Shown here: positions 1-19,072 of the stretch, one piece after another | Numbering within the stretch: the first letter of the stretch is position 1 | Layout of the letters: each line of letters opens with the position of its first letter | DNA from: an uncultured Methanoregulaceae archaeon | GTDB lineage: Archaea; Halobacteriota; Methanomicrobia; Methanomicrobiales; Methanospirillaceae | Length of the DNA: 64,000 nucleotides | Direction of reading: 5' to 3' | Assembly: GCA_963701095.1 (NCBI GenBank) | Contig: OY969564.1 | Span: 832,001 to 896,000 of the forward strand | Program-made: the position numbers and the translations under genes | The notes under the pieces: generated by a model | Database searches by the model: none | Told to the model about the DNA's origin: nothing | Seen by the model: only the letters and a program-made list of their open reading frames with translations

Positions 1-21
1 TAACCAAAGAGGCCGGTTTTC

Positions 22-416: not shown

Positions 417-509
417 ATGCAGGCCCGGAAAGCACCACACGAGAAAACGCCGCAGCCGGCAAAAAAGCCGCATTTTACGACGCACAAACCCCGTAAACGG
501 AGAACCTGA
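417..509 (+). CDS. Possible 30-aa basic peptide
   Basis: ATG directly follows the TAA of the previous gene. MQARKAPHEKTPQPAKKPHFTTHKPRKRRT fills the gap before the tube gene. Confidence 0.35.
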   Translation: MQARKAPHEKTPQPAKKPHFTTHKPRKRRT

Positions 510-515
510 AAAACC

Positions 516-926: not shown

Positions 927-934
927 GGTAAACC

Positions 935-1684: not shown

Positions 1685-1770
1685 TGGGAATGGCGATAAA
1701 TTGGAGAACTTAGCATAGTAGAAGAAAATGGAGAATATCAAGGGGTTTTAGCTAAAAAAGAGAATAGGAG

Positions 1771-2475
1771 TTATCCCCAGCCCATAAGCTCGTACGTGAT
1801 GGAACCACTTGGGAAATTTGAAATCATCTTGACAGGAACCGGAATGCCTGATGCTGACCAATAGGTAAAGGTCGTTTCATTCACCAATCTGGTATATTTG
1901 CTAGCATTAGGATAGGATCCCGCCGGCACTGAAACTGGTTCAATGTCTACAAAAGTGAGCGGTGTTGCCGTGTTGAAACTTGTTACTGCATCTAGTGAGG
2001 TCTGACCTGGAGGAATGTTCGTTGTTGTTTTCTGGCCATTGAACGTAATTGTCATCGTCCCACCGAGTAAAGAGTTCATCGACAAATCATAGTAAGTATC
2101 ATAAACCGTGTTTAAACCGTTTGTCGAAGATGTCATGGTAATTTTTGAATGGATTGCCGATTGCCCTTGATAAGTTCCGATGGACCTCTCCACCTTCATA
2201 TCCATCACTATAGTGTTACCACCAGTCGCTGTTGTAGCCTGATATTCAAACCAATTGAAGTTCGTTCCGAAGACCGATGAGGAATTTACGATCGAACCTG
2301 CTTGAGGCAATGCCAACGAAGGATTTGATGGCGGGCTGGTCGCAGAAGGAGTGCCCGACGATGTGGGAACGGATACATTCGAAGATGGAGGGGTAGTTTG
2401 AGATGTACAACCCATAAAAGTGATCGCAATAACCACAAGCATAACTGAAATTATACCGACAAATGCTGATTTCAT
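1771..2475 (-). CDS. Predicted lipoprotein (moron inside the tail operon)
   Basis: Hydrophobic signal ending FMGC, Ser/Pro/Thr linker and beta-rich domain. Opposite strand and lower GC than the tail genes. Confidence 0.75.
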   Translation of the reverse strand: MKSAFVGIISVMLVVIAITFMGCTSQTTPPSSNVSVPTSSGTPSATSPPSNPSLALPQAGSIVNSSSVFGTNFNWFEYQATTATGGNTIVMDMKVERSIGTYQGQSAIHSKITMTSSTNGLNTVYDTYYDLSMNSLLGGTMTITFNGQKTTTNIPPGQTSLDAVTSFNTATPLTFVDIEPVSVPAGSYPNASKYTRLVNETTFTYWSASGIPVPVKMISNFPSGSITYELMGWG

Positions 2476-2662
2476 TGGTATCCTCCAAAGATTTGAACAG
2501 AAATCACAAAAATCCGTTTTCGTGTATTTGAAATCTTGAATGTTAGGATTGATTGATAATAGTTCATATTTCGGAAATATTTAATAATTTCCAAATTATT
2601 CAAACAAACATTATCGCGACACCTATCCCCATGATTCAGTAATTTATTCAAAATTAAACCTT

Positions 2663-2776
2663 TTTTCCCAATCCCTCCATTTTCCGTGCGATTTTGCCGA
2701 ATTCATGCTCGGCTATAATCCGGCAAAACACCACTATATTCAATGGAAGCAGGCGCTATCATCGTCCGGTTGAATC
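2663..2776 (+). repeat. 114-bp direct repeat, copy 1 (upstream region plus first 11 codons of the tape measure gene)
   Basis: Matches 3766-3879 with 3 mismatches. Contains the inverted repeat TTTTGCCG..CGGCAAAA. Confidence 0.95.
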
Positions 2777-2820
2777 GCTCTTACTACTTTTGGTCTGGGC
2801 GGTCCTTGCTGGAATAATTC

Positions 2821-3657
2821 TTACACATTCAACATTTCCGGCAACTTTCTCGCCCATGACTTGATCTTATCTCCCTCCTGAAAATCCGTTGAGGGAATAT
2901 TTTTGTTTTTTGCGAAACGTGTCGTGAAGCTAAGTTTTTTCTGACCCGGTGCAGCGGTAAAAAAGATTGAGGAGACCGGAGAGATTGGAGATAATGCCAT
3001 TTTCACGTTTGTCATCACAGAGTCAGGATTCATTCCCTCAAGACCAACAGCAAAAATGGCTACCGGCATGTGTGACAACTGTTCGCTAAAACGTTTTTTT
3101 GTAAAATTTCCAATATCCCCTAAACCTGTTGGTCCGGTAAAAATCGGTACTCCGATAATAACCGCAGAATAATTTTCCAGCGAGGACACGTTTTTCATAT
3201 CAGCTACATCAATAGTATATTCTGCCGTACGCAGTTCGTTTCCGATCTCCTGCGCGATTTCTGGTGTTGATCCGAGGAGTGATGAATAGGTAATGAGAAT
3301 ACGATTGCCGTAAAACTCTCCTCCGTTGTAAGATTCCCCGGATAAGGGCATATTTGTCTTTGTATATCTGTCACTCCAGGAATCCGGAACATATATTCCA
3401 TTGCCTGATGTCGACAACGAAGTCCGGTTTTGACGTTTCAATTCCTGCAGAAGGTGCGAGTGTACAAAATGCCATCGGCAATAATCTAAACATATAGCCC
3501 CAGAAAGTAAAACGACAAAGATGCCGATGTCAAAACCCCTAAAAGGAAGGATTGTAAAACGAAGCTGTGGAATAATGAAGAATAAAATAACAGCTGTCAC
3601 GAGTACTTTCAGAACAAATATTTTCCAATTATTGAAGTATCCAGTAATATAATCCAT
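2821..3657 (-). CDS. Membrane-anchored flavodoxin-domain protein (HemG/Flavodoxin_5-like)
   Basis: Two N-terminal TM segments, then ILITYSSLLGSTPEIAQEI, YSAVIIGVPI, PVAIFAVG and IKSWARKL flavodoxin motifs. Confidence 0.75.
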   Translation of the reverse strand: MDYITGYFNNWKIFVLKVLVTAVILFFIIPQLRFTILPFRGFDIGIFVVLLSGAICLDYCRWHFVHSHLLQELKRQNRTSLSTSGNGIYVPDSWSDRYTKTNMPLSGESYNGGEFYGNRILITYSSLLGSTPEIAQEIGNELRTAEYTIDVADMKNVSSLENYSAVIIGVPIFTGPTGLGDIGNFTKKRFSEQLSHMPVAIFAVGLEGMNPDSVMTNVKMALSPISPVSSIFFTAAPGQKKLSFTTRFAKNKNIPSTDFQEGDKIKSWARKLPEMLNV

Positions 3658-3765
3658 GAATTAACAAATACTATTCACATTAAATTTATAAAGATGATTT
3701 CTACAGAGCCAAAAAAAAATCCTAATAAGTGATTTCGAAATAAATTATTCTCCTCAAACCACCCC

Positions 3766-3879
3766 TTTTCCCAATCCCTCCATTTTCCGTGCGATTTTGC
3801 CGAATTCATGCTCGGCTATAATCCGGCAAAACACCACTATATTCAATGGAAGCTGGCGCTATCACCGTCCGGTTAAATC
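3766..3879 (+). repeat. 114-bp direct repeat, copy 2 (overlaps the true tape measure start)
   Basis: Offset 1103 bp from copy 1. Confidence 0.95.
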
Positions 3880-5642
3880 TGGATGCGTCCGGGATGCAGG
3901 GCGGTATCTCCAGCCTCAACCAGGGCATAACCGGCGTTGCTGCACAGTTCGATGTCCTCCAGTATGCGGCATCGGCCGTGTTCGGGTACGTCGAACAGGG
4001 ATTCAGTGATACCGTCGGTACTGCCATTGCGTACTCTGACCAGATGCAGCACGTCTCTGATGTAACCGGCATGAGTGCTGAATCTGCGCAGAAATGGAAC
4101 GCCGCCAATATCTCGGTTGGCGGTTCCCTGGATTCGATGCTCTCTTCGCTCCAGATGGTACAGGGTAAGATCGCCGACACAACCACCGCTGGCAATACCT
4201 ACCGGAAAACCCTGGACGATCTGGGCATCGCGTACAAAGATGTCAACGGCAATTATCTCGACGCCGATACCCTCCAGAAAAACATCCTTGAAAGCCTCAG
4301 CAAAGTAACCGATGCCACCCAGCGGGACTCGGATGCCCGGCTTATCTATGGCCGGGGATGGGCAAGCAATGCCGAACTTATCACGAACGCCACTAAAGCC
4401 CTCCAGACCTATAACGCGACCCCGGCGCCATTCTCCGACGACCAGATAGCCGCTGCCCACAACATGGGAATCGAGCTTGACGAGTTCAATGCCAAACTCT
4501 CCATTACCCAGACCACCCTTGGCATGGAACTGTTACCATCGGTAAACACCTTGGTAACCACATTCAGTTCGGCTTTCAATGAGGACAGCCCGGTCATCAC
4601 CTTTTTCTCATGGCTTGATGGAGCGATTGAAGATTCCGTCGAAGGGTTCGCAAAACTCGTTGGCGGTATCGAAGCCGGCACCATCGCCGTCGCGGATATT
4701 ACCAGCGGGAAAGGACTTGCCCAGGCAACGGCAGATTTCCAGGCCCAGGAAAACAAGACCACCGCTTACATCACCAACCTCCACGGTCAGTTCGATCTCT
4801 CAAAAGAGGCGATGGCTCAAACCTCATCGCCCGCCGAAGCCGCAAGTACCCCTGCCGCCACAACGCCGTCAGATACCACGCCTGCCAAAGCGGCAAAGAG
4901 TACCAAAACCACCACACCAAAAACTGGCTCCGGGTGGGACGATGCCGCCATTGGTCCACCGGGTTCCGAAATGAACCAGTTCATGATGCAGGCAGAGGCA
5001 GCGGGGCAATCCTATAGCGATGCCCTTGACCTCTGGGCCGGAGAAGGCCAGGGTACCCCGGCAAACATTGCGTTCCTGCAGCAGTTCCAGGCCGGACAGG
5101 CAAACCAGGGCATGAATGAGCGGGCAGCCGCAGATTCCGGTAGCACGAGTACAACCACCCCGGCCAGCACGACAAAGACCGCCGATGCCCCGAGCCAGTA
5201 CGATACCCAGCTCAAAGCCGCCCAGAAATTTTACAGCGACCTGCAGGCACTGGAGACCACGCAGCTTACGGCCTTAAACAAGATCGAACAGACGTACTGG
5301 ACAAACGTTACCCAGATGGCTCAGGCAGCGCTTGCCGACTGGCAGAGCATCGCCACCCAGATCTCCAGTATCATTGCGTACGAGAATACAATAACGGCGA
5401 AAAACGGGGTGGCACAGTCCCAACCTTTGGCTGCCCAGACCGTCACCGGTTCTTCCATCAGCACCGCGAACCCAAACACGTCGATAACCGCAGGAAGTCC
5501 CGGTGGAAATACAGCGCCATCCGCTCCGGCGATAACCGTCAACGTCACCGCTCCCTCAACCGACGCCGGCGATATCGTCAACGCTGCAAGGAACGCCCTC
5601 CAGGTAGCCGGTAACAGTGTATCGGCAGGGAGCCTGTACTGA
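3846..5642 (+). CDS. Tail tape measure protein
   Basis: 598 aa, Ala/Gln-rich and helical. N-terminal GAITVRLNLD and C-terminal ITVNVT..DAGDIV are typical of tape measures. Lies between the chaperones and Dit. Confidence 0.85.
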   Translation: MEAGAITVRLNLDASGMQGGISSLNQGITGVAAQFDVLQYAASAVFGYVEQGFSDTVGTAIAYSDQMQHVSDVTGMSAESAQKWNAANISVGGSLDSMLSSLQMVQGKIADTTTAGNTYRKTLDDLGIAYKDVNGNYLDADTLQKNILESLSKVTDATQRDSDARLIYGRGWASNAELITNATKALQTYNATPAPFSDDQIAAAHNMGIELDEFNAKLSITQTTLGMELLPSVNTLVTTFSSAFNEDSPVITFFSWLDGAIEDSVEGFAKLVGGIEAGTIAVADITSGKGLAQATADFQAQENKTTAYITNLHGQFDLSKEAMAQTSSPAEAASTPAATTPSDTTPAKAAKSTKTTTPKTGSGWDDAAIGPPGSEMNQFMMQAEAAGQSYSDALDLWAGEGQGTPANIAFLQQFQAGQANQGMNERAAADSGSTSTTTPASTTKTADAPSQYDTQLKAAQKFYSDLQALETTQLTALNKIEQTYWTNVTQMAQAALADWQSIATQISSIIAYENTITAKNGVAQSQPLAAQTVTGSSISTANPNTSITAGSPGGNTAPSAPAITVNVTAPSTDAGDIVNAARNALQVAGNSVSAGSLY

Positions 5643-6523
5643 TGTATTTTACCTGGACGCCGCCGGGAGGCTCGCCGGGCCTGACCTTCTCCGGAAGTGC
5701 CCCGGATTACCGGCTGCTCAAGGGATACGACGGCCTTGAGGCAATGGCCAGTGTCGTCATGACCGCGAAATCCCTGTATCTGGACGGGGAATTTATAATC
5801 GCTACCCCGTGGCTGGACGACCGGTCAATCACCATCCCGCTCATGATTATCTCCACCGACGGCACTCTCCCCACCCTCCAGGCCGAAGTCCTCACGCTGG
5901 TTTCTGCCTTAAATCCGAAAAATGGCATCGGAACTCTGACTTTCTACAACGATGCCGGGGCGGCCTATGCCATCAATTGCGTCAACGATACCGGTTCCCC
6001 GGCCATGGATACCAACGTCCGGGGGCTGACGTACTGGCAGTGCACCCTCAAGTTCAAGGCATACGATCCAACGTGGTACAACCCGGTCGCCGGGACAAAC
6101 CCGTTCCAGACCTTCTATAACGGGTGGTCATATCCCCGCAGTTATCCCGAAAGTTACGGGATGGCAAACACGACTCTGGGATGCACCAACAACGGCAACA
6201 CGCCCACATGGTTTACGGCCGTGGTGACCGGCCCTGTGGCCAATCCCGTTATCACGAACCTTGCCACCGGGGAATTCCTCCAGTCAAGCCAGATCCTCTC
6301 GGCGGGGGACACCCTCACCATCAGCACGAAACCCCGGGCATGCACCGCGACCTACACCCCCTCCGGTGGCAGCCCAATAAACGCCATGAAAACAATGTCG
6401 CTCAACAGCACCTTTTTCCTGCTTCCTTCCGGGGTAACCGCGATCACCTACGCTTCGAGCCTGAACATCCAGAGCGGATCCACTATGACCATTACCTGGA
6501 ACGACCGGTGGGCGGCGATCTAA
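5642..6523 (+). CDS. Distal tail protein (Dit, Sipho_tail-like)
   Basis: Motifs FKAYDPTWY, NNGNTPT, GPVANPVITN, GDTLTIST, FFLLPSG. Start overlaps the tape measure stop. Confidence 0.85.
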   Translation: MYFTWTPPGGSPGLTFSGSAPDYRLLKGYDGLEAMASVVMTAKSLYLDGEFIIATPWLDDRSITIPLMIISTDGTLPTLQAEVLTLVSALNPKNGIGTLTFYNDAGAAYAINCVNDTGSPAMDTNVRGLTYWQCTLKFKAYDPTWYNPVAGTNPFQTFYNGWSYPRSYPESYGMANTTLGCTNNGNTPTWFTAVVTGPVANPVITNLATGEFLQSSQILSAGDTLTISTKPRACTATYTPSGGSPINAMKTMSLNSTFFLLPSGVTAITYASSLNIQSGSTMTITWNDRWAAI

Positions 6524-6541
6524 ATCCCGGCAGCGAATCCT

Positions 6542-8870
6542 ATGCCCCTCTGGGTCTTTGACCCGACCTTAAACGCCATCGGCATCATCGACGGGTACCA
6601 GTACCTGTCCTGGACGCGGGACTTCCGGGGCGTCGGTGCGATGAAATTAGAGGTAGCCAAAGGTCTCGCCCGCGACAACCTGGGGAATTCCCTGGTCCAG
6701 CCGGGGAACTTCTTTGGCCTGTACCGGAACGGCTGGTGGCGGATAGCCCGGATCACGCAGGGAAGCATTGCGTGGAAAGCGGACGACACCACGAATTCAG
6801 ACCTCTGGACGATTACCTGCGCTGACGGCAAAGGTATTCTCAACCAGCGGCTGTGCCTTACCGACACAACGACCGGCACCGGATACAATTCCCTTGCCAC
6901 CGATGCGGAGACGGTCATCCGGACACTGATTACCGAAGAGATGATGGCCAATGCTAATCCCGACCGCAACATCCCCCAGCTCGTCCTTGAGACAATCAAC
7001 CAAAGCCGTGGCGGGACCGTCACGATTGACGCCCGGTTTGACTATGTTATGGATACGATCACGGAGGTACTCAACCAGAGCGGGTTTCTCGGCCTGGAAG
7101 TCCGGATGAACCCCGCCGTAACGCCGCCAACGCTTGTCCCGACCATGATCGTCGGCACCGACCGCACCCAGTCCGTGTTTTTCACCCCGAAGTTCTCCAA
7201 CGTCCGGGAACTGGACTATTCCTTCGATATTTCTAAGTCCCGGAACGCGGCTCTCGTGGCCGTTCCGGTACCGGCGCCGCACGGACACAGTCCTGGGTAA
7301 CCGTCGATAATTCCTTCTACCCGATGGGACGCCTTGGTTTCTCAACCACAGTCTGTTCTCTTGCAGACTGCGGGAACGGGATCCTGGTCTTCGGTGCCAA
7401 TGACGGGTTCATCTACCGGAGCACCACCAACGGCAGTACGTGGACGCAGATCACCGGGCTGGACTCCGGATCCGTTTCCGCACTCCTGTTCGTCAACAAC
7501 ATGGTTATCGCAGGAACCTCCCCGAACGCGAAACTCTGGGTATCGTATGACCTCGGCCTGACGTGGACACTTCTGGCAACGCTTCTTACCCAGGATGGAT
7601 CGACCACCATCAGCTGCCTTGCCTGCGACGGCCGGCCCGATGTGCTCACGACCACAGTAACCGCTACCACGGGTATTAACGACAGCCCGGGCATGATCAA
7701 CGATAGCGAAACGGTGGGCTGGACGGGTGCCATCAATATCTATGCCGGCACTGGCGGAAGCGGCAAAGGGACCGCCTGGATGGCGAACCTGAATTCCCTC
7801 TCGTCGTGGTCAAGCCTCGGTGCTCTCACCGGCGGCGATACGGCTGTGAGCGCCATGATCTATGCCGGCGTAGCCGGTGCCAACGGTGCCCCCACGTGGT
7901 CAACGCACGTCACCACCGATTCCAATCCCATCCCCGCATGCCCCCGGGGTGTATGGCCGCCGCGGGAAGCTCGGGAAACCTGTACTGGTTCGGGCAGGTA
8001 CTGGCCGGGATCGATGCGGTCTACCTGCAGGAGGGGCCGCAGAGCGTTGGCTACCAGACGGCGGTATGGGGGCCGTTGCAATGGAACCTCATTTACACCT
8101 TTCCCGGGGTGACGGCTGTACCGGTGCTTCTCGCAGCAGCGAACGGCGATGTCCTTGCTGGCTGTGCACCCGGCGGCGAGCTCTTCCGGTGTTCGGGGGG
8201 TCTTGTGTCCTGCCAGAACCTGATCAACCCTAACCAGTGGGCGTACGTGACCCGGCTTGGTACCGGGAAGCTGACGGTCAGCTGCATGGTTGACGGCGGG
8301 CAGGGGCTGTTGTATGCCGGGGTCAGCGGCGGTACCAATGCCCAGGTGTACCGGAGCCTGGATTACGGGGCTACCTGGGTATCGCTCGGGAACGTAGGGA
8401 CGGAAACCGGGGTCTTTGTGCTCAACCTATCGCCGACGGGGTACCTGGTGCTGGGCACATCTCCTTCCGGCGCCATCTACCAGGCCATGAACGTCAGCCT
8501 TGGTAAAATCCCGACCGGCATGAACCGTTCGGAAATCCTGGTGGACGCTTCCGACGCCCAGAGCGCCGGCACTATCACGGCACAGGGAGCCCAGACGATC
8601 ACCGATCTCGCGGAAGTGGATACCCTTACCTGTATCCTCCAGCCGGGAAGCGATACGTTTGTTTACGGGACGGATTTTGATCTCGGCGATATGGTCACCG
8701 TCGTGTACCCGGGCATCGTGCAGAAAAGCGCCCGGATCCTGACGATCCTTGAAGAATATTCCTTAACTGACGGCGAACAGGACACGATCACGCTCGGGAG
8801 CACCGGTACCGATCTGGTCAGTATCGTCAAGAAAGCGAACAAAGCAAACACGAAAGCCAGGAGGAAATGA
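6542..8870 (+). CDS. Tal/baseplate hub protein (ReqiPepy6 Gp37-like) with inserted beta-propeller; apparent frameshifts
   Basis: N-part GIIDGYQYLSWTRDFRGVG..SRNAALVA and C-part RSEILVDASD..FVYGTDFDLGDMVTV, with BNR-like repeats (SYDLGLTW, SLDYGATW) between. Spread over three ORFs. Confidence 0.75.
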
Positions 8871-10150
8871 CGATGACGATTACCTACGGTTACTTTGCAT
8901 CAGCCACCGGCGATATCCGGCAGTATCTCCAGACCGACGACGCGAACCTGTTCCGGCAGTGGTGGACGAACGGCATCATGAACAGTTTTACGAATTCGCT
9001 CCAGGTAACGGCTCTCGCCAGCCCGAATATGTCAGTGAACATTGCGATAGGCGGCTGCCTTATTGACGGGTACTGGATGTACAGCAATGCCGTCGTGAAC
9101 CTGCCGATTGCGCCGAATACCTCCGGGAACCCGCGTATCGACCGGGTCATTGTGACCATCGATGAAGTAAATGCTCGTGCCATCCAGATCACGGTTCTTC
9201 TGGGTACTCCGGCTGCATCCCCGGTACCGCCAACCCTTACCCAGAATACCGGCACAACCTTCCAGTTGTCGCTTGCCCAGGTCGCGGTCGCCAGCGGTAC
9301 AAACCAGATCCTGGCAGGAAACATCACCGACGAACGCTGGACCCAGGTACTGCGGCGTAATGGCAGCGACAATGGGGAAGTTCTCCATACAATCGGATGG
9401 TTCCCTGAACGGCGGCGGGATGAATATCCATAACATTGCCGATCCGGTGAGCCCTCAGGACGCGGCGACACTTCATTATGTAACCAATCTCATGGGCTCG
9501 AATCAGACCCGGTAAAAATATCCACGCTGACTTCCGGGACCTCGTTTACAATCCAGGCTTCCACGCAGTATGTAGATATTATTCTTGTAGGTGGATGCGG
9601 CGGCGGAGGTGGTGGCGGTGGAGGATACTCTGGCGGTACGTGGGCTGCTGGGGGTGGTGGCGGTGGAGGTACAGGAGCCTGTCTCCAGGAATATGGTATC
9701 CCCGTCTCCGGAAATATACCGTATACCATCGCAATCGGCATGGCTGGCACGGGGGGTAGTGGCGGTGGCGTAAACAGTGCCGGTGGGGCTGGCGGAAGCG
9801 GTGGAAGCACATCAATCACTATCAATGGCATCACGTACATTGCAGGAGGAGGCGGTGGCGGTGGTGCCGGATCACCGGCGGGATCCAATCGTGCAGGAGG
9901 TGCATCATCTGGTGGAGGGGGAGGAGGTGTATCCGGCGGTTCTACTGTTCTGGGTATCTTAGGATCGTCCGGCGTCGGTGGCAGTGCCGGATCCGGTGCC
10001 TATCCCGGTGGTGGCGGTGGCGGCTGCTACGGGTTTTATTCTGCCACCTGTTACGGTGGTTCTGGTGGTTCTGGAGGAGGCCCCGGAGGGGGCGGAAATG
10101 CAGGATCTGCCGGAACGGCCGGGTTTATGATTATTGTGGAATGGTCATAA
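8867..10150 (+). CDS. Upper baseplate/tail fibre protein with C-terminal glycine-rich domain; two apparent frameshifts (~9347, ~9510)
   Basis: PRIDRVIV..LSLAQVAVASG..ITDER baseplate domain, NIADPVSPQDAAT neck-like motif, then VDIILVGGCGGGG..GTAGFMIIVEW Gly-rich domain. Confidence 0.7.
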
Positions 10151-10355
10151 TCCTTTTTTTAATAATACATTGTTAAAAACGAATCAATGAAAAACTGTTA
10201 GGCCAACGAAATCGCTGCCGGATTAAAATATTTTTCTAAGTCTAAATCACCTTACAAAACAAATATTTTATTGAGTGAAAGTGTCTCAAAAATTCTTAAC
10301 GCATTTAAATTTTTCATTCAGAGCGTTAATATGATAAATAATCAAATTAGGAAAT

Positions 10356-10871
10356 ATGAGTGGCACTCTTGATGACAAGGACATGTGGCAATATGCGCTT
10401 CAACAAGATTTACACATGATTACCGAGTTTGGCTTGGGAATTGTTGGTATAGGTGCATTATTTGTTGCGTACACATCAGCCGACCCCGTTAAATTTCCCG
10501 GCTTACAAGGAATTATCGCAGTTATTGGCCTTGCTGGATCATTGATAATATTTTGTCATATTGTTGAAACTGGATTGGATTTTTGGAATTTTAAAAAAAC
10601 TCTAACGGCCACAAATAGATGTTTCTTTTATAGATTTGATAAATCCCGAGGACAATTGCGGAATTTTTCGTTTGGAAAATTATTCAGGTGTTTTCCTATA
10701 ACTCTTTTAATGGGATATTTCATGTTCATGGTAGCGTTGGCATGGATTGTGTTACTAATCGATCTACCGGCATTTGGAGTTACATTATCACCTTTATTTC
10801 TGGTTTATATTTCCATAGTAGTATTTGTTATGTTTGCAATAGTTTACAATTTAAAAATAAGGGAGTTATGA
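10356..10871 (+). CDS. Hypothetical 4-TM membrane protein
   Basis: Four hydrophobic segments; AT-rich gene. Confidence 0.6.
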   Translation: MSGTLDDKDMWQYALQQDLHMITEFGLGIVGIGALFVAYTSADPVKFPGLQGIIAVIGLAGSLIIFCHIVETGLDFWNFKKTLTATNRCFFYRFDKSRGQLRNFSFGKLFRCFPITLLMGYFMFMVALAWIVLLIDLPAFGVTLSPLFLVYISIVVFVMFAIVYNLKIREL

Positions 10872-10950
10872 GATTAAGTTTGCTGTTGTGTTTACTGTTG
10901 ATTCCAATTCTTTACCTCATTAATTTTATTAAATAACTAAAACACACCAG

Positions 10951-11307
10951 ATGAGAAATAATTTATATTCAAATAGCCTTTTCCAGAATATGTATCAAAT
11001 ATCCCCACGTGATTTTTCCCAATTAAATGCTGAAATTAACAGCGAAATTGAGAAAGTCTTATTAAAATTTGTAGCCGACGGGAAAATCAAAATGATTACC
11101 GAGGGAAAATCATTAACATCCTCTGGCGACGGCGAGAAACGAAAAAGAGGCAGGCCACGTAAGGTAAAAATCGAATTGAAAGAGAAAAGACCGCGGGGCA
11201 GACCGCGTAAAATCAAAACTGCTGAAACAAAACCCGCCGACGGTCAAAAACGCAAACCCGGCAGACCGAAAAAACTTGTAATTGCAGAATCTGATCATTA
11301 CGATTGA
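10951..11307 (+). CDS. Small protein with three AT-hook motifs
   Basis: KRGRPRK, PRGRPRK and KPGRPKK in the C-terminal half. Confidence 0.7.
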   Translation: MRNNLYSNSLFQNMYQISPRDFSQLNAEINSEIEKVLLKFVADGKIKMITEGKSLTSSGDGEKRKRGRPRKVKIELKEKRPRGRPRKIKTAETKPADGQKRKPGRPKKLVIAESDHYD

Positions 11308-11444
11308 TGGCAGGACATCTCGCATCTTTTAACGTTTTTATTCAGTGTTTATCTCATGACTATGAAAATGAGAATATATAGCGTAAACTTATTAATATGA
11401 ATGATATATCATATTTTGTCTTTATTCATCTAAAATTATAGGAG

Positions 11445-12047
11445 GTGAACTATTTGACAACGTTGTTAGATTTTTTGTCGATTGGAAAGCAATTAGATGA
11501 GCTGTACGAATTCCTAAAGAAAGTTAAAAGCGATATTAGTGAATACTCTCGGGAATTGTCAAATAAAGAGATAAAACAAGTCCTTAAGGATTTCAAGAAG
11601 GGGGTGGCAGAAACCCATATAATTTGTATTAAAATTATTGAAGCCGACGAAGTTGAAAAACAAATGCTTGGTAAATCACTAAATATAAGCAAAAAAGAAC
11701 GAGAAGAGATTGGCCAAAAAATAGGGTTAATAGCACAAGAATTGGAAAGAATTGTTAAAATCCCAGCTGTCGATCATTTCATAGGAGAAAGACCGGTGTT
11801 ATCAAAGCAGATGTATCGAACTATGAAGATGAGGGCGATGGTAAAGAGGGTATGGTTTGAAGAAGCAGAATCTCTTAAGGCTATTCCTGATGAGGAATTA
11901 TACGATAGGAAAATAAGAATTAAGAATGATCCTACGTATGATATTGAACATGCGTTACAAATCCTTTTTATTAAACACATGAAACAACTGGATAGAAGTG
12001 CTGTGGAATTGATAAAAGTTTTAGATACAACAATTGATTCACTTTAA
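11445..12047 (+). CDS. Hypothetical alpha-helical protein
   Basis: 200-aa ORF with GGAG upstream; no recognisable motif. Confidence 0.55.
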   Translation: MNYLTTLLDFLSIGKQLDELYEFLKKVKSDISEYSRELSNKEIKQVLKDFKKGVAETHIICIKIIEADEVEKQMLGKSLNISKKEREEIGQKIGLIAQELERIVKIPAVDHFIGERPVLSKQMYRTMKMRAMVKRVWFEEAESLKAIPDEELYDRKIRIKNDPTYDIEHALQILFIKHMKQLDRSAVELIKVLDTTIDSL

Positions 12048-12110
12048 AAATATGATAGGGAAAATCCCTACAATATTTTGAAAATTGATTTAGGTAACCA
12101 TCATCTAAAT

Positions 12111-12782
12111 CTAAAAAAGTCCCTTTACGGGCTCAATCAATTTCTCATCATCCGCATCCGTTTTGTTTACCCTCTCCGACACCGGGTATGCTACCATTTC
12201 CTCGGCCGGAAACTGCGCAAGGATCCGGTTGATCTCTTCAGCAGGAATCACTTCGCTGGACAACCACCGCATCTCGTCATCCTGTTTAAGGATAACCGGC
12301 ATCCGGTCGTGGAGAGGAGCAACCATCTCATTAGCGGCAGTCGTGATGATTGTATACGTCTGGAGGATTGCACCAGCCGGGTTCCGCCAGGTATCGTAAA
12401 GCCCGGCAAAGCTAAAAACCGGGTCATCTTTTACGTGGATATAGAAGGGAACTTTACGCCTGCCCTCATTTTTCCATTCATAAAACCCACTCGCAGGAAC
12501 AAGGCAGCGTTGGGATTTCAGGAGATCACTGAACATTGGTTTCTCATCGAGATTTTCTGCCCGGGCATTAATGGGCCGGTGCGTTGTCGTGATATCTTTT
12601 GTCCAGTGCGGAACGAGTCCCCACTGCATCATCACTGCTTCTGCCCGCTCATGAGCAACTATAACCGGGTTCGAACTTCCAGGGGCGATGTTGAAGTGAG
12701 ACCGGAAACCGAGTGTCGGGTCGAGAAGTCGGAACCTGCCGCAGAGGTCATCAATACACCAGAGGGAGTACCGGCCACACAT
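12111..12782 (-). CDS. SRAP family abasic-site processing protein (HMCES/YedK-like)
   Basis: MCGRY N-terminus (Cys2), WGLVP, INARAE, GFYEW, HDRMPVIL. Confidence 0.95.
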   Translation of the reverse strand: MCGRYSLWCIDDLCGRFRLLDPTLGFRSHFNIAPGSSNPVIVAHERAEAVMMQWGLVPHWTKDITTTHRPINARAENLDEKPMFSDLLKSQRCLVPASGFYEWKNEGRRKVPFYIHVKDDPVFSFAGLYDTWRNPAGAILQTYTIITTAANEMVAPLHDRMPVILKQDDEMRWLSSEVIPAEEINRILAQFPAEEMVAYPVSERVNKTDADDEKLIEPVKGLF

Positions 12783-12876
12783 GATAAATGGTCTTTATTG
12801 AGTGGGGAGGCATCAAAGTTTGCAATGAACTCGTTGAATTTTCATCTAATTCTAACCAATGCAAAGAATTCGTGTA

Positions 12877-13932
12877 TTACAATTCACCCTGTTTCGCAAG
12901 ATGAACAAATGGATCTACTTTTGTGATGGTTCCATAGCATTGTTCGGAGGCCGCTTTGCATCCTCCCTTACAAATATCTTTCAATTCAGGAGCACACGAA
13001 ACACATTCATCCGGATATGTTGTCCGGAAATTACAGACATAAGGATGGTGTAAATAAATTTCCTTGATGCTGTCTTTCCTGATATTGCCAAGAATTACAG
13101 GGGAATGGTTGCATATCCGGATATTTCCGTAAGGATCGATAGTGAAATAAGAATTTTCGCCTGCTTTGGGGCAAAATCCTATCAGAATATGTTTGTATTC
13201 TCTTGGGGGAACAACACACGGCTCCAGAACTACTGCAGCGACACTCCGCATGCCATATGTCTCACCGATTTTCTCTAATGTCTCCAAATTTTCCTGAATC
13301 ATAGTTGGCGATGGAAGAAGTTCACGCCAAAAGTGAATATTGTGCGTACCCAGATTGATACGGTTATACATTAATGAATTAGCACCGAGAATAAGTGCAA
13401 GCTCTGCGGTTTTTTGGATATCCTGATAATTCAGTTTTGTTGCTACAAATACAACCGCAAAATTTCCCCCGGCTTTGGAAATATGAATCATGGCATTTAC
13501 GGCAGCGTCCCAAGCACCGGGTCGCCCGGCTAAATGATCATGAACCTCCTTTTTATGACTTAACAATGTGATTTGGTAGGTATTTACAGAATGAACCGTG
13601 GCTGCGATCAGTTCTTTGGTGAGGAGGGTCCCGTTCGTTATAATGACTACAGCGATCCCCCGTTCCTTTACAAACGAAATTAAATCCGGTAAATCGGAAC
13701 GGAGGAGTGGCTCTCCTCCAGAGAAACCAATGATCTCTATCGGGAATTCTTTCTGGAGTTTAATGATGACTTCTTTTATCTCATCTGTTGTCATCTCTTC
13801 CAGAGAGGGTGATGGATTATATTGTTCGTTATCACCCCATACGGTATAGCAATACAAACATCGATTGTTACAACGTTGCGTTACTTCGATGACAACATAC
13901 TTTGGTAAGGTTTCAGGCGTATTTCCATTCAC
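12877..13932 (-). CDS. Radical SAM/SPASM domain protein (PqqE-like maturase)
   Basis: CNNRCLYC, SGGEP, TNG and SPASM cysteines (IDPYGNIRIC; CVSC..CKGGC). Confidence 0.9.
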   Translation of the reverse strand: MNGNTPETLPKYVVIEVTQRCNNRCLYCYTVWGDNEQYNPSPSLEEMTTDEIKEVIIKLQKEFPIEIIGFSGGEPLLRSDLPDLISFVKERGIAVVIITNGTLLTKELIAATVHSVNTYQITLLSHKKEVHDHLAGRPGAWDAAVNAMIHISKAGGNFAVVFVATKLNYQDIQKTAELALILGANSLMYNRINLGTHNIHFWRELLPSPTMIQENLETLEKIGETYGMRSVAAVVLEPCVVPPREYKHILIGFCPKAGENSYFTIDPYGNIRICNHSPVILGNIRKDSIKEIYLHHPYVCNFRTTYPDECVSCAPELKDICKGGCKAASEQCYGTITKVDPFVHLAKQGEL

Positions 13933-13940
13933 GCTGATTC

Positions 13941-14294
13941 CTATTGAGAAAGCTCTTTCGCAGTTTCTTTCGAGATTATTCCCTCATCGACAAACTGTTT
14001 CACCAGGGATTCCTTAACTGCCGTGTCAATCGTCGGTGAGATTACATCTATGACTGGATAGTAGCACAAGATAGGCCGATGCCCCCAAATGAACCCGACA
14101 ACAAATTGCTGAGGTTCGGATAGCAGCACTTCAACCTCTGTTCCTACAAGTGAGGCAATGGTCTTTTTATCGATCTGCGGCCCAAGTGGAAGCAGCTGTT
14201 TTTTCTGCTTTCCTTTCAGGCTTGGAATCTCGAGATAATGTTCTCCACCCTCAACAACAACTTTCCCCTTTACTTTGTTGGACGACATGTTCAT
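13941..14294 (-). CDS. Hypothetical 117-aa protein co-transcribed with the radical SAM gene
   Basis: Ends 8 nt upstream of the rSAM start. Single Cys in WGHRPILCYYP. Confidence 0.7.
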   Translation of the reverse strand: MNMSSNKVKGKVVVEGGEHYLEIPSLKGKQKKQLLPLGPQIDKKTIASLVGTEVEVLLSEPQQFVVGFIWGHRPILCYYPVIDVISPTIDTAVKESLVKQFVDEGIISKETAKELSQ

Positions 14295-14542
14295 TCACCC
14301 GATTCAGATCATTTCAGTTATAGTATTTAATTATTTATATTCTACACAATTGAAATTTTACAATGCTATTAAAATTTTTAATGTGATTGCTACGAATAAT
14401 GTGAAACTAAACTTGTACCCGGTGCCGATCACTTTCACTCTCCGTATGGCCGGATCCTTATCCACATCAGTGCAGCAGGGATCCGGTGCTATGCACATCG
14501 AGATCCTCGAGCACCCGTACCATGACACTCAGGAGAAGGATC

Positions 14543-16495
14543 GTGTGGATCCTTGACTCCGCGTACCGGGACCGTGGTATCGATCTCTGGATTAAGGACG
14601 GACCAGTAACAAAAACCCATTACGATTACCGGCCGCCTTTTTACGTCCACTTCCACGACCCTCACGTTCATCAGGAGATGATCGAAGCACTGGAAGAGCG
14701 GCATGATGCGGAAGAGTGCGCCATCAAAACCGTCTTTGGCGAACTCCCCGGGTATGCAGTTACCGCAGGCCGGGATGTGGCCGAAGCGATAGAACGTCAG
14801 GCACAATTCGATGTCGATATCTTCAACGTTGATGTACGCAGGGACCAGCGGTTCATGGCCGAACGTGGGATCTGTCCGTGTATGGGAAAAGGGGATGACC
14901 GGTTTTCCCCGGAAATCGTACACAATCTTACCGTAATGGAGATTGAGATCCAGGGCAACCCGGCACTCTCCTCGCAGTTCACGGAAATTGAAATAAAAGG
15001 AATCCACACGGAACGGCTCACCGGTGAGAACCATGAAGTCCTCGCTGAACTCTTCGGCCTCGTCAATTCGCTTGACCCTGATGTCATCCTCATGCCGGAT
15101 GCCGATACCTGGATGCCGAAGATCCGGAAACTGGCACAACAATATGATCTGGTCATGCCTTTCTCGCGGAACGGCAAGTACCGGCAGATGGACGCCCGAT
15201 CGTACTGGAGTTACGGCAGGATGGAACACAAGGAATCTGCGCTTATTCCCGATGGGCGTATCCTGATCGATACCGAACAGTCGTTCGTGTACCGGGAGGG
15301 TGGTCTGGATGCAGTCCTCATGGCCGCCCGGCTTACAGGACTCTCGCCGAACTTAGCGTCCCGGTTCACGCCCGGAACCCTCATCAGCAGTGACGAGGTC
15401 TACGAAGCAGTAAAACGTGGGATTGCAGTGCCGTTCCGCAAAAGGGATCCGGAGCAGAGCCGTAAGCTCTCAGTTCTCCAGACCGCTGACCGGGGAGGTA
15501 TGATGTTCCAGCCAGAGCCAGGGACATTTGAGAATGTCGAGGAGATCGATTATACATCCATGTATCCCTCCATCATTGTAAAATCAAACCTCTCGCCGGA
15601 GACGGTCGGGCATCAGGAACGTGCGGGATTCCTTCCTGCGGTGCTCAAGCCGCTGCTCGAACTCCGTGTCAAAACCAAGCAGCTCAAGAAGACCGATCCA
15701 CGATTTGCCGGTACTGATGCAATTCTCAAGTGGATGCTCGTCACCTGTTTCGGGTACACGGGTTACAAGAATGCGAAGTTCGGGAGAATAGAGGTGCATG
15801 AGGGGATCACCGGCCGTTCCCGGGAAATCCTGATACAAACCAAAGAGATCGCCGAAAAGATGAATTTCCGGGTACTGCATGGGATCGTAGATTGTCTCTG
15901 GGTGCAGGGATCTCCGATCAAAGCACTCAGGGAACGGGTCGAGCGTGAAACTGATCTGCTCCTTGAAATTGACCACTTCGACTGGATCGTTTTTCTGCCT
16001 CTCGCGGATGGTTTTGGTGCCTATAACCGGTATTATGGCAGGCAACCGGATGGTAGTATCAAGGTCCGGGGAATTGCCGCTCGGAAACATGACACGCCAG
16101 AGTACATCCGGGAGATGCAACGCCGGATGCTGGATGTCATGGCCCGGGCAAAAACGATCGCTGAACTCAAAGTGACACAGGATGAAGTCACAGCAATTTA
16201 CCGGGAAACGATAAACAGACTGCCATCAGCGGACCCAAAGGAAATGATGATCAACCGCCGGATTAGCCGGCTCACGTATGCGCACCGGTGCATTGAAGGC
16301 GCAGCAGTGCAGGCATACCGGGATAACAAGATAGAGATCGCACCCGGTATGAAGATCCAGTACGTGGTGACCGATGCCCGGCGGTACAAGGTGGAACCTT
16401 CATGGTGCGCATCATCGTTTGATGTCGGATATTACCGGGAATTGATCGATAAGGCATATGGCGAGATCACGTTCGCATTTTCTCAGGCAGGATAA
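14543..16495 (+). CDS. polB2: Family B DNA polymerase, PolB2 (Dpo2-like) type
   Basis: Motif A DYTSMYPS, motif [13 protein letters not shown], motif C HGIVDC (not YGDTDS), degenerate exonuclease motifs. Likely GTG start at 14543 after AGGAG. Confidence 0.85.
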
Positions 16496-16569
16496 TATAA
16501 TCTGAGGTTGGGTGGTTTCGAACCCATTACCTCAAAACCCTGATATTTATTGCACACAAATGTGACTGC

Positions 16570-16728
16570 ATGACAATCCAAAGTGAGCAAACTACCCTCC
16601 CATTTGAGCAAAATGTCCACCCCTTAAATGTTACAATGAGTGATCTGAAGCAGTTTGAAGAACTCACAGGTCTCCCCGGAATAGCAAAACAAATGATTCG
16701 AGAAAAAATCGTAAAGGTTAAAGATTGA
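16570..16728 (+). CDS. Possible 52-aa protein
   Basis: MTIQSEQTTLPFEQNVHPLNVTMSDLKQFEELTGLPGIAKQMIREKIVKVKD, with TTTATT upstream. Confidence 0.4.
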   Translation: MTIQSEQTTLPFEQNVHPLNVTMSDLKQFEELTGLPGIAKQMIREKIVKVKD

Positions 16729-16759
16729 TACAAAAAGAGTGAATATCCTTTTTAATTCA

Positions 16760-16833
16760 AGCCTATGGCGAGATTTGAACTCGCGACTTCTTCCTTACCA
16801 AGGAAGCACACTGCCGGGCTGTGTCACATAGGC
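16760..16833 (-). tRNA. tRNA-Thr(GGT), complete
   Basis: Acceptor GCCTATG/CATAGGC, D-stem ACAC/GTGT, anticodon arm CTTCC-TTGGTAA-GGAAG, T-arm GCGAG-TTCAAAT-CTCGC. Confidence 0.92.
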
Positions 16834-17004
16834 AATTGCTTTTTCATTTTTGGTTTTTCTTCTATTTATGCTAAGGAGGAACTCATTTCCACGACGTCTT
16901 TACCAAGGAAGCACACTGCCGGGCTGTGTCACATAGGCAATTGCTTTTTCATTTTTGGTTTTTCTTCTATTTATGCTAAGGAGGAACTCATTTCCACGAC
17001 GTCT
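16795..17004. repeat. Exact tandem duplication, 2 x 105 bp (39-nt tRNA 5' half plus 66-nt spacer)
   Basis: Units 16795-16899 and 16900-17004, each starting at TTACCAA (the anticodon loop on the minus strand). Confidence 0.95.
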
Positions 17005-17043
17005 TTACCAAGGAGGTACTCTGCCGGGCTGAGTCACTTAGGC
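17005..17043 (-). pseudogene. Orphan 5' half of a different tRNA-Thr(GGT), cut after the anticodon loop (putative att junction)
   Basis: GCCTAAGTGACTCAGCCCGGCAGAGTACCTCCTTGGTAA, with 5 differences from the complete copy. TATA-like TTTTATAAT at 17151-17159 on the minus strand. Confidence 0.85.
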
Positions 17044-17201
17044 GTGTTTCTTCTACATCCTGCTCCTGTGAGGAATCAATTGGTTTTTACCGGAACATAA
17101 TACCGGCTTTAATCGCACAGGCAGGTTGCCTAGATACATTGTCGGTGAATATTATAAAATATTGCGGAGACTCTCTGGATTTCCCGGAGTTTACGCTCTA
17201 T

Positions 17202-17915
17202 TCAGAGCATCCGTTCCAGCATATGCATACTTGCGACCGCACCTGCGAAGTCTTCAACCTCAATTACCGGGGATCCGCCACTTTTTTTAACGGCACTCAT
17301 GACGGGTGAAAAATCGATAGTGCCCCTGCCAACAGCCCAGTGTGAATCGGCAGAGCTATCATTGTCATGCAGATGGTAGTGCCGGGCAGGGATGGAAAGA
17401 AATGATGCCAGGCAGTGATTCTGGTGCGCATGCCCTACATCGAGGGTAAAACCATAACCTTCGATCAAGTGGAGCTCATCTGGTGTTTTCAGGAAGAAAT
17501 ATTCCCAGTCCCCCATGTTCTCGACCGAAAACGATACACCGTATTCTTGTGCTGCGGCAGAAAGGTGCCTAAGCGATACCGCAAGCTGTTGTGCTGCCTG
17601 CGCTCGTTCCTCAGGCCACGCAAAGTACCCGGGGTGTACGACAACTTCCGCCCCTACTTCCGCTGCGATGGCAAAACATTCCTCCATCACCACAACACTT
17701 CCCCGCCGGATAGGTTCGAGCAGGCTTGCAAGATTCGTCCCCCGGCAGGGAGCATGGATGGAGAAGGTACAGGAGTAGGATAACAGCGGTTCAGCACTGC
17801 TAAGGAAATGGAGACCTTCATCCATCACTTCGATTGATCCTGTTACGTTGGAGATCCTTTCCAATGCTACCGGAAGGGGTTCGTGGTGGAGGCAGAGCGT
17901 GGAGATGCCAATCAT
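17202..17915 (-). CDS. Sugar phosphate isomerase/epimerase (AP endonuclease 2 TIM barrel)
   Basis: HAP, VVHPG, VENM, LDVGHA, HLHDN, VIE metal-binding motifs. Confidence 0.85.
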   Translation of the reverse strand: MIGISTLCLHHEPLPVALERISNVTGSIEVMDEGLHFLSSAEPLLSYSCTFSIHAPCRGTNLASLLEPIRRGSVVVMEECFAIAAEVGAEVVVHPGYFAWPEERAQAAQQLAVSLRHLSAAAQEYGVSFSVENMGDWEYFFLKTPDELHLIEGYGFTLDVGHAHQNHCLASFLSIPARHYHLHDNDSSADSHWAVGRGTIDFSPVMSAVKKSGGSPVIEVEDFAGAVASMHMLERML

Positions 17916-18050
17916 TCAAGGAGCATGTACGGTCAGATCCCCATAAACATGCTGATCCAATTTGGGGAGTGACGAGCGTTGCGAATCCACGTGAAGTCAT
18001 TCCGTTTTTTAGTACCGGGCCATCTCCTGAGGAAAAAAGAGATTATTGTT

Positions 18051-19072
18051 TCATATGTACATCAACTGCGGGAACGGGATTTCGATTCCTTCACGTGAGA
18101 ACCGGTGTGCAACCCTGACGTTGATGGCATCCTTGACCTCGTCCGGGAGGTTATAGGCTTTTGCCCAGACATAGATCACAAATTTCAGGCTTGAATCCCC
18201 GAACTCCTGGAAAAAAATCCTCGGTCCCGGTTCATCAGCAAAATAATCGGTATTTTTAATCGCATCTTCGACAATCTCGAAAAGCACTTCCTTGACGCGG
18301 GAGACATCGTTCCCGTAAGCGACAGTTACCGGGATCGTATACCGGACTTGGGGATTGGGTTCTGAGTAATTGACAACACTACTTGACGTAATCTTGTTGT
18401 TAGGGATCGTGACAATCTTACCGTCAACGGTCCGGACCGGGTGCTCCGCGTACCGATCGCAACCACGTCACCGCAGAAGGCATCTATCTCGATACGGTCA
18501 CCTGTTTTGAAAGGTTTATCGACCGTGATAATCGCGCCGCCAAAAAAGTTGGAGATCAGATCCTGTGCAGCAAGGGCAAAGGCCAGACCAGCGATACCGG
18601 CACCGGCAAGGAAAGGGGTAATATTGATCTCGAGGTTGACAAAGACCAGCATGATCCCGGCAAACCAGACCACGTACCGCACGGCAAGTTCAAGGAGATC
18701 AACAATCCGGTCATCCGCGTCCCCCTCAGTCATTGCGGCAAGCTGGCGGCCGTAGATCCGGATGATATCATGAAGAAAAGAGGAGGCGATCCAGGTCCCC
18801 AGCAGAATAAGGATCGAATTGAGCACCTTATCGGAGATAATCCAGGCATATTGCTCCGGAACGATGTTAAAATCCTTAAGGGCGATATAGACCGAGATAG
18901 CAACGATCCCGATCTGAACCGGCGTGCCAATAGCGGCAACGATGATATCATCCCATTTTGTGTTGGTCGTTTCGGCATATTTCCGGAGCCACCGCACGAT
19001 CATCCGTGCAATGCCAGCTACGGCAAGACCGGGAAGAAGGCTCAGGGCCGCGAAGAGGACGTTATCATCCAT
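18051..19072 (-). CDS. mscS: Small-conductance mechanosensitive channel; apparent frameshift near 18440
   Basis: GAGIAGLAFALAAQDLISNFFGG..DKPFKTGDRI; C-part FGDSSLKF..GIEIPFPQ. Confidence 0.9.

Follow-up and report, generated by a model that had tools for sequence, protein, structure and literature searches.

The window analysed here, a stretch of 64,000 nucleotides from an uncultured Methanoregulaceae archaeon (contig OY969564.1, positions 832,001 to 896,000 of the forward strand), contains one end of a 62,364-bp element that lies between the two halves of a tRNA-Thr(GGU) gene. This element is very probably an archaeal provirus that split the resident tRNA-Thr(GGU) gene of its host and brought along a complete copy, which would make the locus an archaeal case of tRNA-dependent lysogeny. 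The reading rests on the anatomy of the locus, the position of the crossover, the linkage of the supplied tRNA gene (variant A) to the element, and the presence of A as a single copy. The genome under study, G000, is a single contig (C1) of 2.63 Mb, on which the window corresponds to G000:C1:832001-896000 of the forward strand; positions without this prefix are those of the window. McrA is encoded in G000, so the host is a methanogenic or methane-metabolising archaeon.

The split tRNA-Thr(GGT) gene and its proposed in-line replacement

An earlier, sequence-only reading of the window had described a five-part layout on the minus strand, consisting of two 5′ halves of a tRNA-Thr gene, two identical spacers and one complete tRNA. 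This layout was borne out by ARAGORN, by a repeat search and by comparison of the repeated units, and reads as follows in the direction of the tRNA (att denoting attachment sites):

17043 to 17005, minus strand: 5′ half B, orphaned from the resident tRNA-Thr(GGT) gene (variant B) and matching without a difference the 5′ half of the syntenic tRNA that is intact in the relative G020
17005 to 17011, minus strand: anticodon loop within orphan half B, the crossover segment of attL
17004 to 16939, minus strand: 66-nt spacer, copy 2, the end of the element at attL (read from the sequence)
16938 to 16900, minus strand: 5′ half A ending in TTGGTAA, which joined to a spacer forms the extra 105-nt unit (repeat search and unit comparison)
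16899 to 16834, minus strand: 66-nt spacer, copy 1, the right arm of attP and the region upstream of the cargo tRNA, containing ATAAATA
16833 to 16760, minus strand: complete cargo tRNA-Thr(GGT), variant A (ARAGORN; Rfam 63.3 bits, E 2.1e-13)

ARAGORN called one tRNA-Thr(GGT) in this region (16760-16833, minus strand), and the repeat search returned two 105-nt copies together with three 42-nt copies at 100, 98 and 86%. The two 105-nt units, 16795-16899 and 16900-17004, are identical (0/105 differences). Halves A and B differ at 5/39 positions, including the compensatory D-stem pair (12:24) that had already been pointed out, and over their full length the two variants differ at 7/74 positions, made up of the compensatory pairs 6:68 (acceptor), 12:24 (D stem) and 29:43 (anticodon stem) plus one unpaired base. 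Likewise in agreement with the sequence-only reading, the 7-nt loop TTGGTAA immediately precedes the break in both 5′ halves, and a TATA-like ATAAATA at spacer positions 31-37 ends 29 nt before the tRNA. The 23 nt of the spacer that adjoin the tRNA are conserved in a related element, L041, which is described further below.

The minimum-free-energy fold of tRNA A is a cloverleaf (-28.2 kcal/mol, z -3.0). The 5′ half B read on into the spacer scored 15.6 bits with the Rfam tRNA model, below the gathering score of 29, gave no cloverleaf fold and was not called by ARAGORN. Variant A is the sole tRNA-Thr(GGT) of G000 among 48 ARAGORN calls (53 with introns allowed), and the disrupted tRNA-Thr(GGT) has no other intact copy in the genome, whether introns were allowed or not. 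A single-copy tRNA-Thr(GGU) gene is essential by standard decoding rules and, as the only tRNA-Thr(GGT), variant A would become the sole decoder of ACC and ACU in the cell. Variant A is presumably expressed, with the ATAAATA in the spacer as a candidate promoter and read-through from the host promoter as an equal alternative.

A search of the whole genome with this region revealed exactly one further match, on the minus strand at G000:C1:786606-786654 (E 2.7e-13), beyond the left edge of the window and 62 kb away. Its sequence, ...AAATGCCTCT-TTGGTAA-GGAGGAAGTCGCGAGTTCAAATCTCGCCTTAGGCT, is the B-type 3′ half (GGAGG...CTTAGGC) that had been predicted to follow TTGGTAA at the far end of the element, and the tyrosine integrase predicted to accompany it was found next to it. 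Residues R151, R264, H270 and Y297 of this integrase are invariant (3/3) in an alignment with two homologues. The element and its far end are thus laid out as follows:

G000:C1:786606-786652: attR, with 3′ half B beside the integrase
G000:C1:786708-787850, plus strand: tyrosine integrase of 380 aa (PF00589, E 1.3e-8), 53 bp from 3′ half B and running into the segment
G000:C1:786641-832000, left of the window: remainder of the element, including integrase and attR
1 to 16759: right-hand 16.8 kb of the element, with Pfam matches in the window

The position of the crossover follows from comparison of the junctions, in which attL reads CCTCC-TTGGTAA-AGACG, attR reads CCTCT-TTGGTAA-GGAGG, and the intact target in G020 reads CCTCC-TTGGTAA-GGAGG. 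Because flanking differences are present on both sides, the exchange was confined to the 7-base anticodon loop TTGGTAA, which is where recombination had been proposed to occur. The attP core deduced from these junctions, CCTCT-TTGGTAA-AGACG, is an imperfect inverted repeat (4/5 positions) mimicking an anticodon arm, and attP and the target gene share only CCTC(T/C)TTGGTAA. The core pattern has three occurrences in the whole of G000, two of which are at attL and attR, and no additional att-like core was found inside the 62-kb segment. Since attR holds a 3′ half only and the spacer behind the core is not a functional 3′ half, the target was not rebuilt at either junction.

We propose that a tailed-virus-like element of ~62.4 kb entered the resident tRNA-Thr(GGT) B by tyrosine-integrase recombination inside TTGGTAA. 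Because its attP carries no usable tRNA 3′ half, the gene would have been split and not rebuilt, with 5′ half B staying at the host flank and 3′ half B ending up 62 kb away beside the integrase. The element would in turn supply the complete tRNA-Thr(GGT) A, 66 nt behind the attP core and in the orientation of the target, so that the host promoter and the orphan 5′ half would come to lie immediately upstream of this cargo. From then on the cell would depend on A, and precise excision would be expected to restore B.

Resident and supplied variants among relatives

The neighbourhood of the locus on the host side contains the following features:

17202 to 17915, minus strand: host-flank gene of the xylose-isomerase-like TIM-barrel / AP-endonuclease-2 family (PF01261, E 1.9e-23)
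17148 to 17160, minus strand: TATA-like ATTTTATAATATT, lying upstream of the oldest orphan and a candidate for the native promoter (from sequence only)
17122 to 17087, minus strand: decayed older orphan 5′ half of tRNA-Thr, A-like with a TTCC arm, abutting the flank motif CTAGGCAA

The TIM-barrel gene adjoins tRNA-Thr(GGT) in relatives as well: the flank query matched 34/41 genomes, and all of the 11 best flank loci outside G000 have a tRNA-Thr(GGT). The best-matching flank is that of G020 (70% nucleotide identity), in which the intact syntenic tRNA equals the two B halves joined together at 74/74 positions, supporting the earlier suggestion that half B is an orphaned piece of the host gene; the tRNA of G003 is B-like with two changes. 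The host-type (B) anticodon arm, CCTCCTTGGTAAGGAGGAAGTC, is present in 88/227 other genomes of the family (76/107 in the genus) and has 0 occurrences in G000. The anticodon arm of A, GCTTCCTTGGTAAGGAAGAAGTC, in which pair 29:43 is changed from C-G to U-A, was found in 0/227 other family genomes, in keeping with the claim that A is not the normal tRNA of relatives, and was also absent from the viral contigs searched. A-like acceptor and D arms are common among the native tRNAs of the genus. These comparisons support the view that variant B is the resident host gene and that A is linked to the element.

Compared with the native sequence upstream of the tRNA in 11 relatives, the spacer gave no significant match; in the best cases (the flank of G000 itself, L009 and L041) the score was reached by 23-27/500 shuffles. 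TTTTATA motifs resembling the TATA-like box at 17148-17160, from which read-through into A might start, were seen by eye in the upstream flanks of L016 and L018.

The decayed orphan upstream of half B aligns end to end with the 5′ half of A at a score that was reached by 2/2000 shuffles. The flank motif CTAGGCAA which it abuts recurs upstream in most of the relatives' flanks inspected, and in contigs of related organisms a tRNA 5′ end is joined to ~17116. In five of the 11 relatives' loci a significant orphan 5′ half (0/1000 shuffles) precedes the complete tRNA by 32-60 nt, and the remaining loci comprise two with weak orphan matches and four without any. Four of the five loci combine an A-like complete gene with an orphan of the C type, which is the type of the intact G009 gene; in G003 the orphan is A-like with a CTTCC arm and the complete gene is B-like. 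Because the type of the orphan differs from that of the complete gene, simple duplication does not explain these arrangements. The C-type 3′ halves are gone from all four genomes with C-type orphan 5′ halves. Together, these data suggest repeated tRNA replacement, followed by erosion of the element, at this locus in the genus.

Relatives of the integrase bear on the linkage of A to the element as well. Homologues at E <= 1e-10 were present in 37/200 other genomes of the order, all but one of them at most 30% identical. A related-locus search with the integrase in viral and genome contigs gave nothing, and the metagenome collection yielded one related locus, L041, with an integrase that is 64% identical. 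On the tRNA strand, L041 consists of the integrase, a conserved arm GTTAGGATGAA, the core TCTTTGGTAAGGA, a 62-nt spacer and a complete tRNA-Thr(GGT), which differs from A in one compensatory acceptor pair and from the native tRNA of G005 in pair 29:43 alone. By this arrangement L041 is the unintegrated state, matching the attP deduced for the G000 element from attL and attR. The proposal that the element brings in a whole divergent tRNA is upheld by the position of A inside the att-bounded segment and by this same order of core, spacer and tRNA in L041. Beyond integrase and tRNA, L041 and the G000 element have nothing in common, and the 19 open reading frames (ORFs) of L041 gave 0 PHROGs matches and 3 Pfam matches. 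Since the rest of L041 is unrelated, the unit of integrase gene (int), attP and tRNA behaves as a module.

Searches for further integrations or free forms gave little. The attR-type junction was found in 0/227 other family genomes, and the 18-nt attP junction had one match in viral contigs, a chance match in an unrelated coding region. The arm-plus-core pattern had 28 matches in genome contigs and 2 in viral contigs, none with a tRNA half, and these were taken as chance. No tRNA call and no tRNA-Thr half was found near the seven nearest integrase loci (L022-L028), and several more distant integrase loci among L029-L040 adjoin tRNA-like sequences. Within G000, a second, distant integrase homologue (29% identity) lies at G000:C1:2069686-2070225, 7 kb from one of two tRNA-Thr(TGT) genes; these two genes (G000:C1:2077533-2077608 and 2424817-2424889) have quite different sequences.

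Contents of the element and competing explanations

To the left of the window, Pfam matches in the element comprise Bro-N, DUF1064, GmrSD, HEPN, GGDEF, ParB-N, an amidase, a large terminase (three Pfam families, E 1e-13 to 1e-15), a portal protein (E 9e-7) and a Cas4-like nuclease. The part inside the window contains the tail genes, followed by SRAP, a radical SAM enzyme and a PolB-like gene, recognised by Pfam unless noted:

516-926: tail tube-like ORF (Pfam)
1259-1684: tail T-like ORF (Pfam)
3846-5642: ORF of 598 aa with no family match, a possible tape measure judged from its position in the tail module alone
5642-6523: Dit (Pfam)
6542-7300 and 7806-8870: two Gp37-like tail proteins (Pfam)
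14486-16495, plus strand: PolB-like gene, 669 aa, near the right end of the element (Pfam DNA_pol_B, E 1.2e-14)

The G+C content drops from ~60% in the tail genes (4000-9000) to 36% around 10-12 kb (9000-12000), pointing to a mosaic origin. A 614-aa nitrilase-family (CN_hydrolase) gene stands beside a 414-aa reverse transcriptase inside the element (G000:C1:813826-816907; L004, L007), and this pair, together with the GmrSD, HEPN, GGDEF (Cas10-palm-like) and MazE-like genes, is possible defence cargo.

The PolB-like gene has homologues in 107/107 other genomes of the genus, and the family has three more copies in G000 (G000:C1:602005-603999, 154090-156091 and 2109988-2111989), two of which are broken by TAA. 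As a true host boundary this gene was considered and rejected, since the family is multi-copy and the copies of relatives have no adjoining tRNA. In many relatives the PolB-like copies were flagged with one in-frame TGA, and numerous short C-terminal fragments are scattered there. A conserved element of ~78 nt closely precedes the PolB-like genes or extends into their start. It was located at G000:C1:846428-846505 (14428-14505 of the window), 786228-786305, 601709-601788, 154052-154109 and 2109933-2110007, and further at 716111-716193, 782030-782114, 783974-784054 and 770355-770420, standing alone several times in the 770-786 kb region.

Parts of the stretch were recovered in twenty metagenome runs of 11 studies, in all cases as contigs and with no RNA run among those listed. 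The contigs of four runs from four studies (X2, X5, X6 and X9) were compared over 15500-18500; the probable source run, X1, was not included. One contig of X2, 2107 nt long, spans 16047-16794 together with 16900-18257, skipping exactly one 105-nt unit, with 24/748 differences on the element side and 0/1358 on the host side, which suggests either an element variant in an otherwise identical host or recombination within the element. An X6 contig (16770-16920, 3 differences) fits the one-unit form. In an X5 contig of 611 nt with 0 differences, 16534-16828 is joined to 17039-17354, so that the host flank abuts the complete tRNA A. This X5 form is not derivable from a single integrase event, and its simplest account would be a secondary deletion of 210 nt (105 nt from the one-unit form) between the repeated halves, with a crossover in the first 5 nt, the sole position that keeps the tRNA properly paired. 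Contigs of X2, X6 and X9 have loose ends after 16808 that correspond to the attR junction (3′ half, core, int arm); because these loose ends run into the integrase-proximal arm, the attR junction is present in three studies.

The two-unit form was seen in this assembly alone, the contigs of the other samples showing one or zero units. Instead of re-integration, the extra 105-nt unit could be a product of replication slippage, of unequal sister exchange across the 10 nt TCCTTGGTAA (attL/tRNA A), or of assembly, and we give this account an even chance. Slippage or exchange across TCCTTGGTAA would yield the same product as an integrase-mediated exchange, the identity of the units makes the duplication either recent or artefactual, and the sequence of one unit in X2, a fit to one in X6 and none in X5 points to an unstable short array or a feature private to the assembly. 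The duplication junction nevertheless falls exactly at the integrase crossover segment and, with attP as the reference (an arm that closes with T and is followed by A), no part of the exchange lies outside the 7-nt loop. Moreover, contigs built with k=31 can collapse tandem repeats, so that those samples may contain two units even where their contigs show one.

The X5 contig also bears on the question of whether variant A could be native to the lineage, with the B halves as relics of something else and the X5 allele as the ancestral state. We regard this as highly improbable, even though the X5 contig does place the host flank directly on the complete A, A-like acceptor and D arms are common in native tRNAs of the genus, and the PolB-like gene adjoining A has family members in each of the 107 other genus genomes that were searched. 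The anticodon arm of A, absent from the 227 other family genomes, stands next to the related integrase of L041. The B halves complement each other exactly as parts of one gene, intact in G020, and bracket the integrase and the virus genes. What follows A in X5 is element-side sequence that forms one continuous stretch with the 62-kb block, has no second copy in the genome and was not found behind tRNA-Thr in any of the 11 loci from relatives. A different question is whether attP was once canonical, its former tRNA 3′ half having eroded into the first ~31 nt of the spacer after a whole tRNA had been acquired. Such a route, listed as one possibility by Guerrero-Bustamante and Hatfull (PMC10865867), is compatible with the mechanism proposed here and appears unlikely to us. 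Rfam does align half B plus the first 31 spacer bases to positions 1-71 of the full tRNA model, but the 15.6 bits come mostly from the intact 5′ half. In-order spacer blocks (GTCG, GAGTTC, CTC and CTTAG-C) match the B-type 3′ half, and with lenient gap costs the score between spacer and 3′ half was reached by 45 and 49 of 3000 shuffles, whereas stricter scoring was not significant (646 and 864 of 2000 shuffles, and 688/3000). The L041 spacer, read by eye without alignment, contains no comparable relic apart from GGATG after the loop.

Several observations weigh against a provirus that split the resident gene and supplied its replacement. Host-like genes of the opposite orientation (PKD, PEGA, BacA and flavodoxin) break up the structural module, no Pfam family match to a major capsid protein was found among the element ORFs, and G+C within the element ranges from 36 to 60%. 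Because of these features the element may be decayed or composite, and the 62-kb block may no longer be a virus at all, having become an island that is kept since the cell needs its cargo tRNA. This is a possibility that we take seriously without favouring it: the opposite-strand genes break both head and tail modules, and relatives keep a replacement tRNA and an orphan 5′ half alone, so such elements do erode. The integrase, however, is undamaged and retains its catalytic residues, the reading frames of the terminase, portal and tail genes are open, the block contains no additional att-like core, and the difference of 3% on the element side between samples with an identical host side fits a mobile or exchanging element. 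Further points against the provirus reading concern the locus itself. The X5 allele has element sequence after tRNA A with neither orphan B half nor spacer, and no attB (empty-site) or circular attP contig was present among the matches listed for the four runs. The flank beyond 3′ half B showed no synteny with any of the 11 relatives' loci, which makes a clean empty-site comparison across both flanks impossible. Only two relatives of the integrase above 50% identity were found, in G215 (54%) and L041 (64%), and the short contig of G215 has no TTGGTAA, tRNA or tRNA half upstream of its integrase. Finally, the marker-gene completeness of G000 is 86% despite its single contig.

Sibling elements and known systems

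The in-line anatomy of the provirus at tRNA-Thr(GGT) recurs twice in G000 outside the window, at tRNA-Leu (G000:C1:315938-324000 and 2535904-2543714; L080, L081). At these loci an orphan 5′ half with the anticodon stem-loop is followed by a 57-nt spacer, a complete tRNA-Leu, an element of ~7.7 kb, an integrase, the core and an orphan 3′ half. The tRNA-Leu elements encode a D5-like primase and a resolvase, and their tyrosine integrase has no meaningful similarity to that of the provirus. An arm-plus-integrase module is common to both (1136/1202 aligned positions identical, 94.5%), and the remainder is unalignable. One element resides in tRNA-Leu(GAG) with a cargo tRNA-Leu(GAG), the other in tRNA-Leu(CAG) with a cargo tRNA-Leu(CAG); the first anticodon base is the only difference between the two cargo tRNAs, and the attP cores vary at this base as well. 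The Leu attR junction was also present in one other genome of the genus, G329 (1/107). The Leu(GAG) case does not concern a single-copy gene, since a third tRNA-Leu(GAG), located at 187 kb, shows the cargo-type stem. Across four elements with integrases of two lineages, the cargo lies 57-66 nt behind the attP core. At G000:C1:1099828-1099877 we also noted an isolated tRNA-Leu-like 5′ half that continues through the anticodon arm (TAA) and then diverges, possibly another split tRNA.

A tentative extension of the proviral mechanism is that portable in-line cassettes, each made of int, an attP core mimicking an anticodon arm and a cargo tRNA 57-66 nt behind it, serially replace the tRNA-Thr(GGU) of the genus, can be retargeted and protect their own cargo. 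Integration would kill the resident tRNA and place the cargo behind the resident promoter, after which the cell could not lose that end of the element. The element would then erode, the cargo would become the new host tRNA, the orphan 5′ half would be left as a scar, and the cycle could repeat. Retargeting might require one base in the attP overlap together with the anticodon of the cargo, as in the sibling tRNA-Leu elements. The U-A pair of the cargo at 29:43, instead of C-G, might shield it from its own integrase, an idea that derives from the 0/227 count of the A arm and from the 29:43 change that is common to L041.

If the cell depends on the cargo tRNA, integration would be a form of addiction and the tRNA a lysogeny gene. 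Repeated replacement, if true, would explain the strong divergence of tRNA-Thr(GGU) among close species. Programs that find islands by looking for a restored tRNA and a displaced 3′ fragment would misplace the boundaries of such elements. The combination of int, attP and tRNA could moreover be turned into a self-selecting vector for integration in methanogens, an application already proposed for mycobacteria.

The sequence-only reading had presented the destruction and replacement of a tRNA gene as novel, a point on which it was anticipated: the principle is already published as tRNA-dependent lysogeny (PMC10865867). As described there for actinobacteriophages (mBio 2024), a tyrosine integrase acts on an attB in a single-copy tRNA gene that shares only 8-17 bp with attP, integration leaves the tRNA unrepaired, and lysogens are viable only with a phage tRNA of the same isotype. 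The G000 element shows all sequence-level features of the phages Fionnbharth, LeBron and Gaia (PMC10865867), namely a tyrosine integrase, an attB in a tRNA gene, a short core, a cargo tRNA within the att-bounded segment and no second copy. It differs in its host, an archaeon with a tailed-virus-like provirus, and in the placement of the cargo, which lies 66 nt from the core in the orientation of the target, whereas that of Fionnbharth overlaps a distant gene on the opposite strand (PMC10865867). Function was shown by genetics in the actinobacteriophages (PMC10865867), whereas the present case is known from sequence alone; the remnants that earlier replacements appear to have left at this locus in relatives are, in turn, a feature that sets it apart from the actinobacteriophages. 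An earlier hint, cited in PMC10865867, came from prophage Lj965 of Lactobacillus johnsonii, in which the tRNA is reportedly not rebuilt at the junction and a cognate tRNA is encoded; its host is bacterial, that of the G000 element archaeal.

For archaea, a full-text literature search, judged by titles and the beginnings of abstracts, returned no report of tRNA-dependent lysogeny, and the passages on archaeal tailed proviruses in PMC11705971 and PMC8651126 make no mention of tRNA disruption. According to the relevant parts of a review on archaeal integrases (PMC8371274) and of the pT26-2 paper (PMC6972569), integration restores or does not disrupt the tRNA, and the locus described here is a clear counter-example to this treatment of tRNA integration as harmless to the target. 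The G000 element shares with SSV1, the pT26-2 family and pTN3 a tRNA gene as target and an integrase that stays intact after integration (PMC8371274, PMC6972569) and, like the SSV1 integrase, its own would cross over at an anticodon loop flanked by stem inverted repeats (PMC8371274). Canonical archaeal elements restore the target tRNA (PMC8371274), whereas here attP has no 3′ half and the gene stays split. Elements of the pTN3 type carry the 5′ half in attP and drive the rebuilt gene from the element (PMC8371274); in G000, by contrast, the orphan 5′ half is joined directly to the host flank, a 3′ half lies at the far end, and a whole tRNA is supplied. With the anticodon-loop class (Williams 2002, as summarised in PMC8371274) the element has in common the crossover in the 7-bp loop with dyad arms, but its attP lacks the segment from the crossover to the 3′ end that is carried in that class.

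Taken together, tRNA-dependent lysogeny would thereby extend from actinobacteriophages to an archaeal virus-like element. The principle itself is the one published for actinobacteriophages, and it is the archaeal host, the in-line cargo and the decayed orphan halves that appear to be new.

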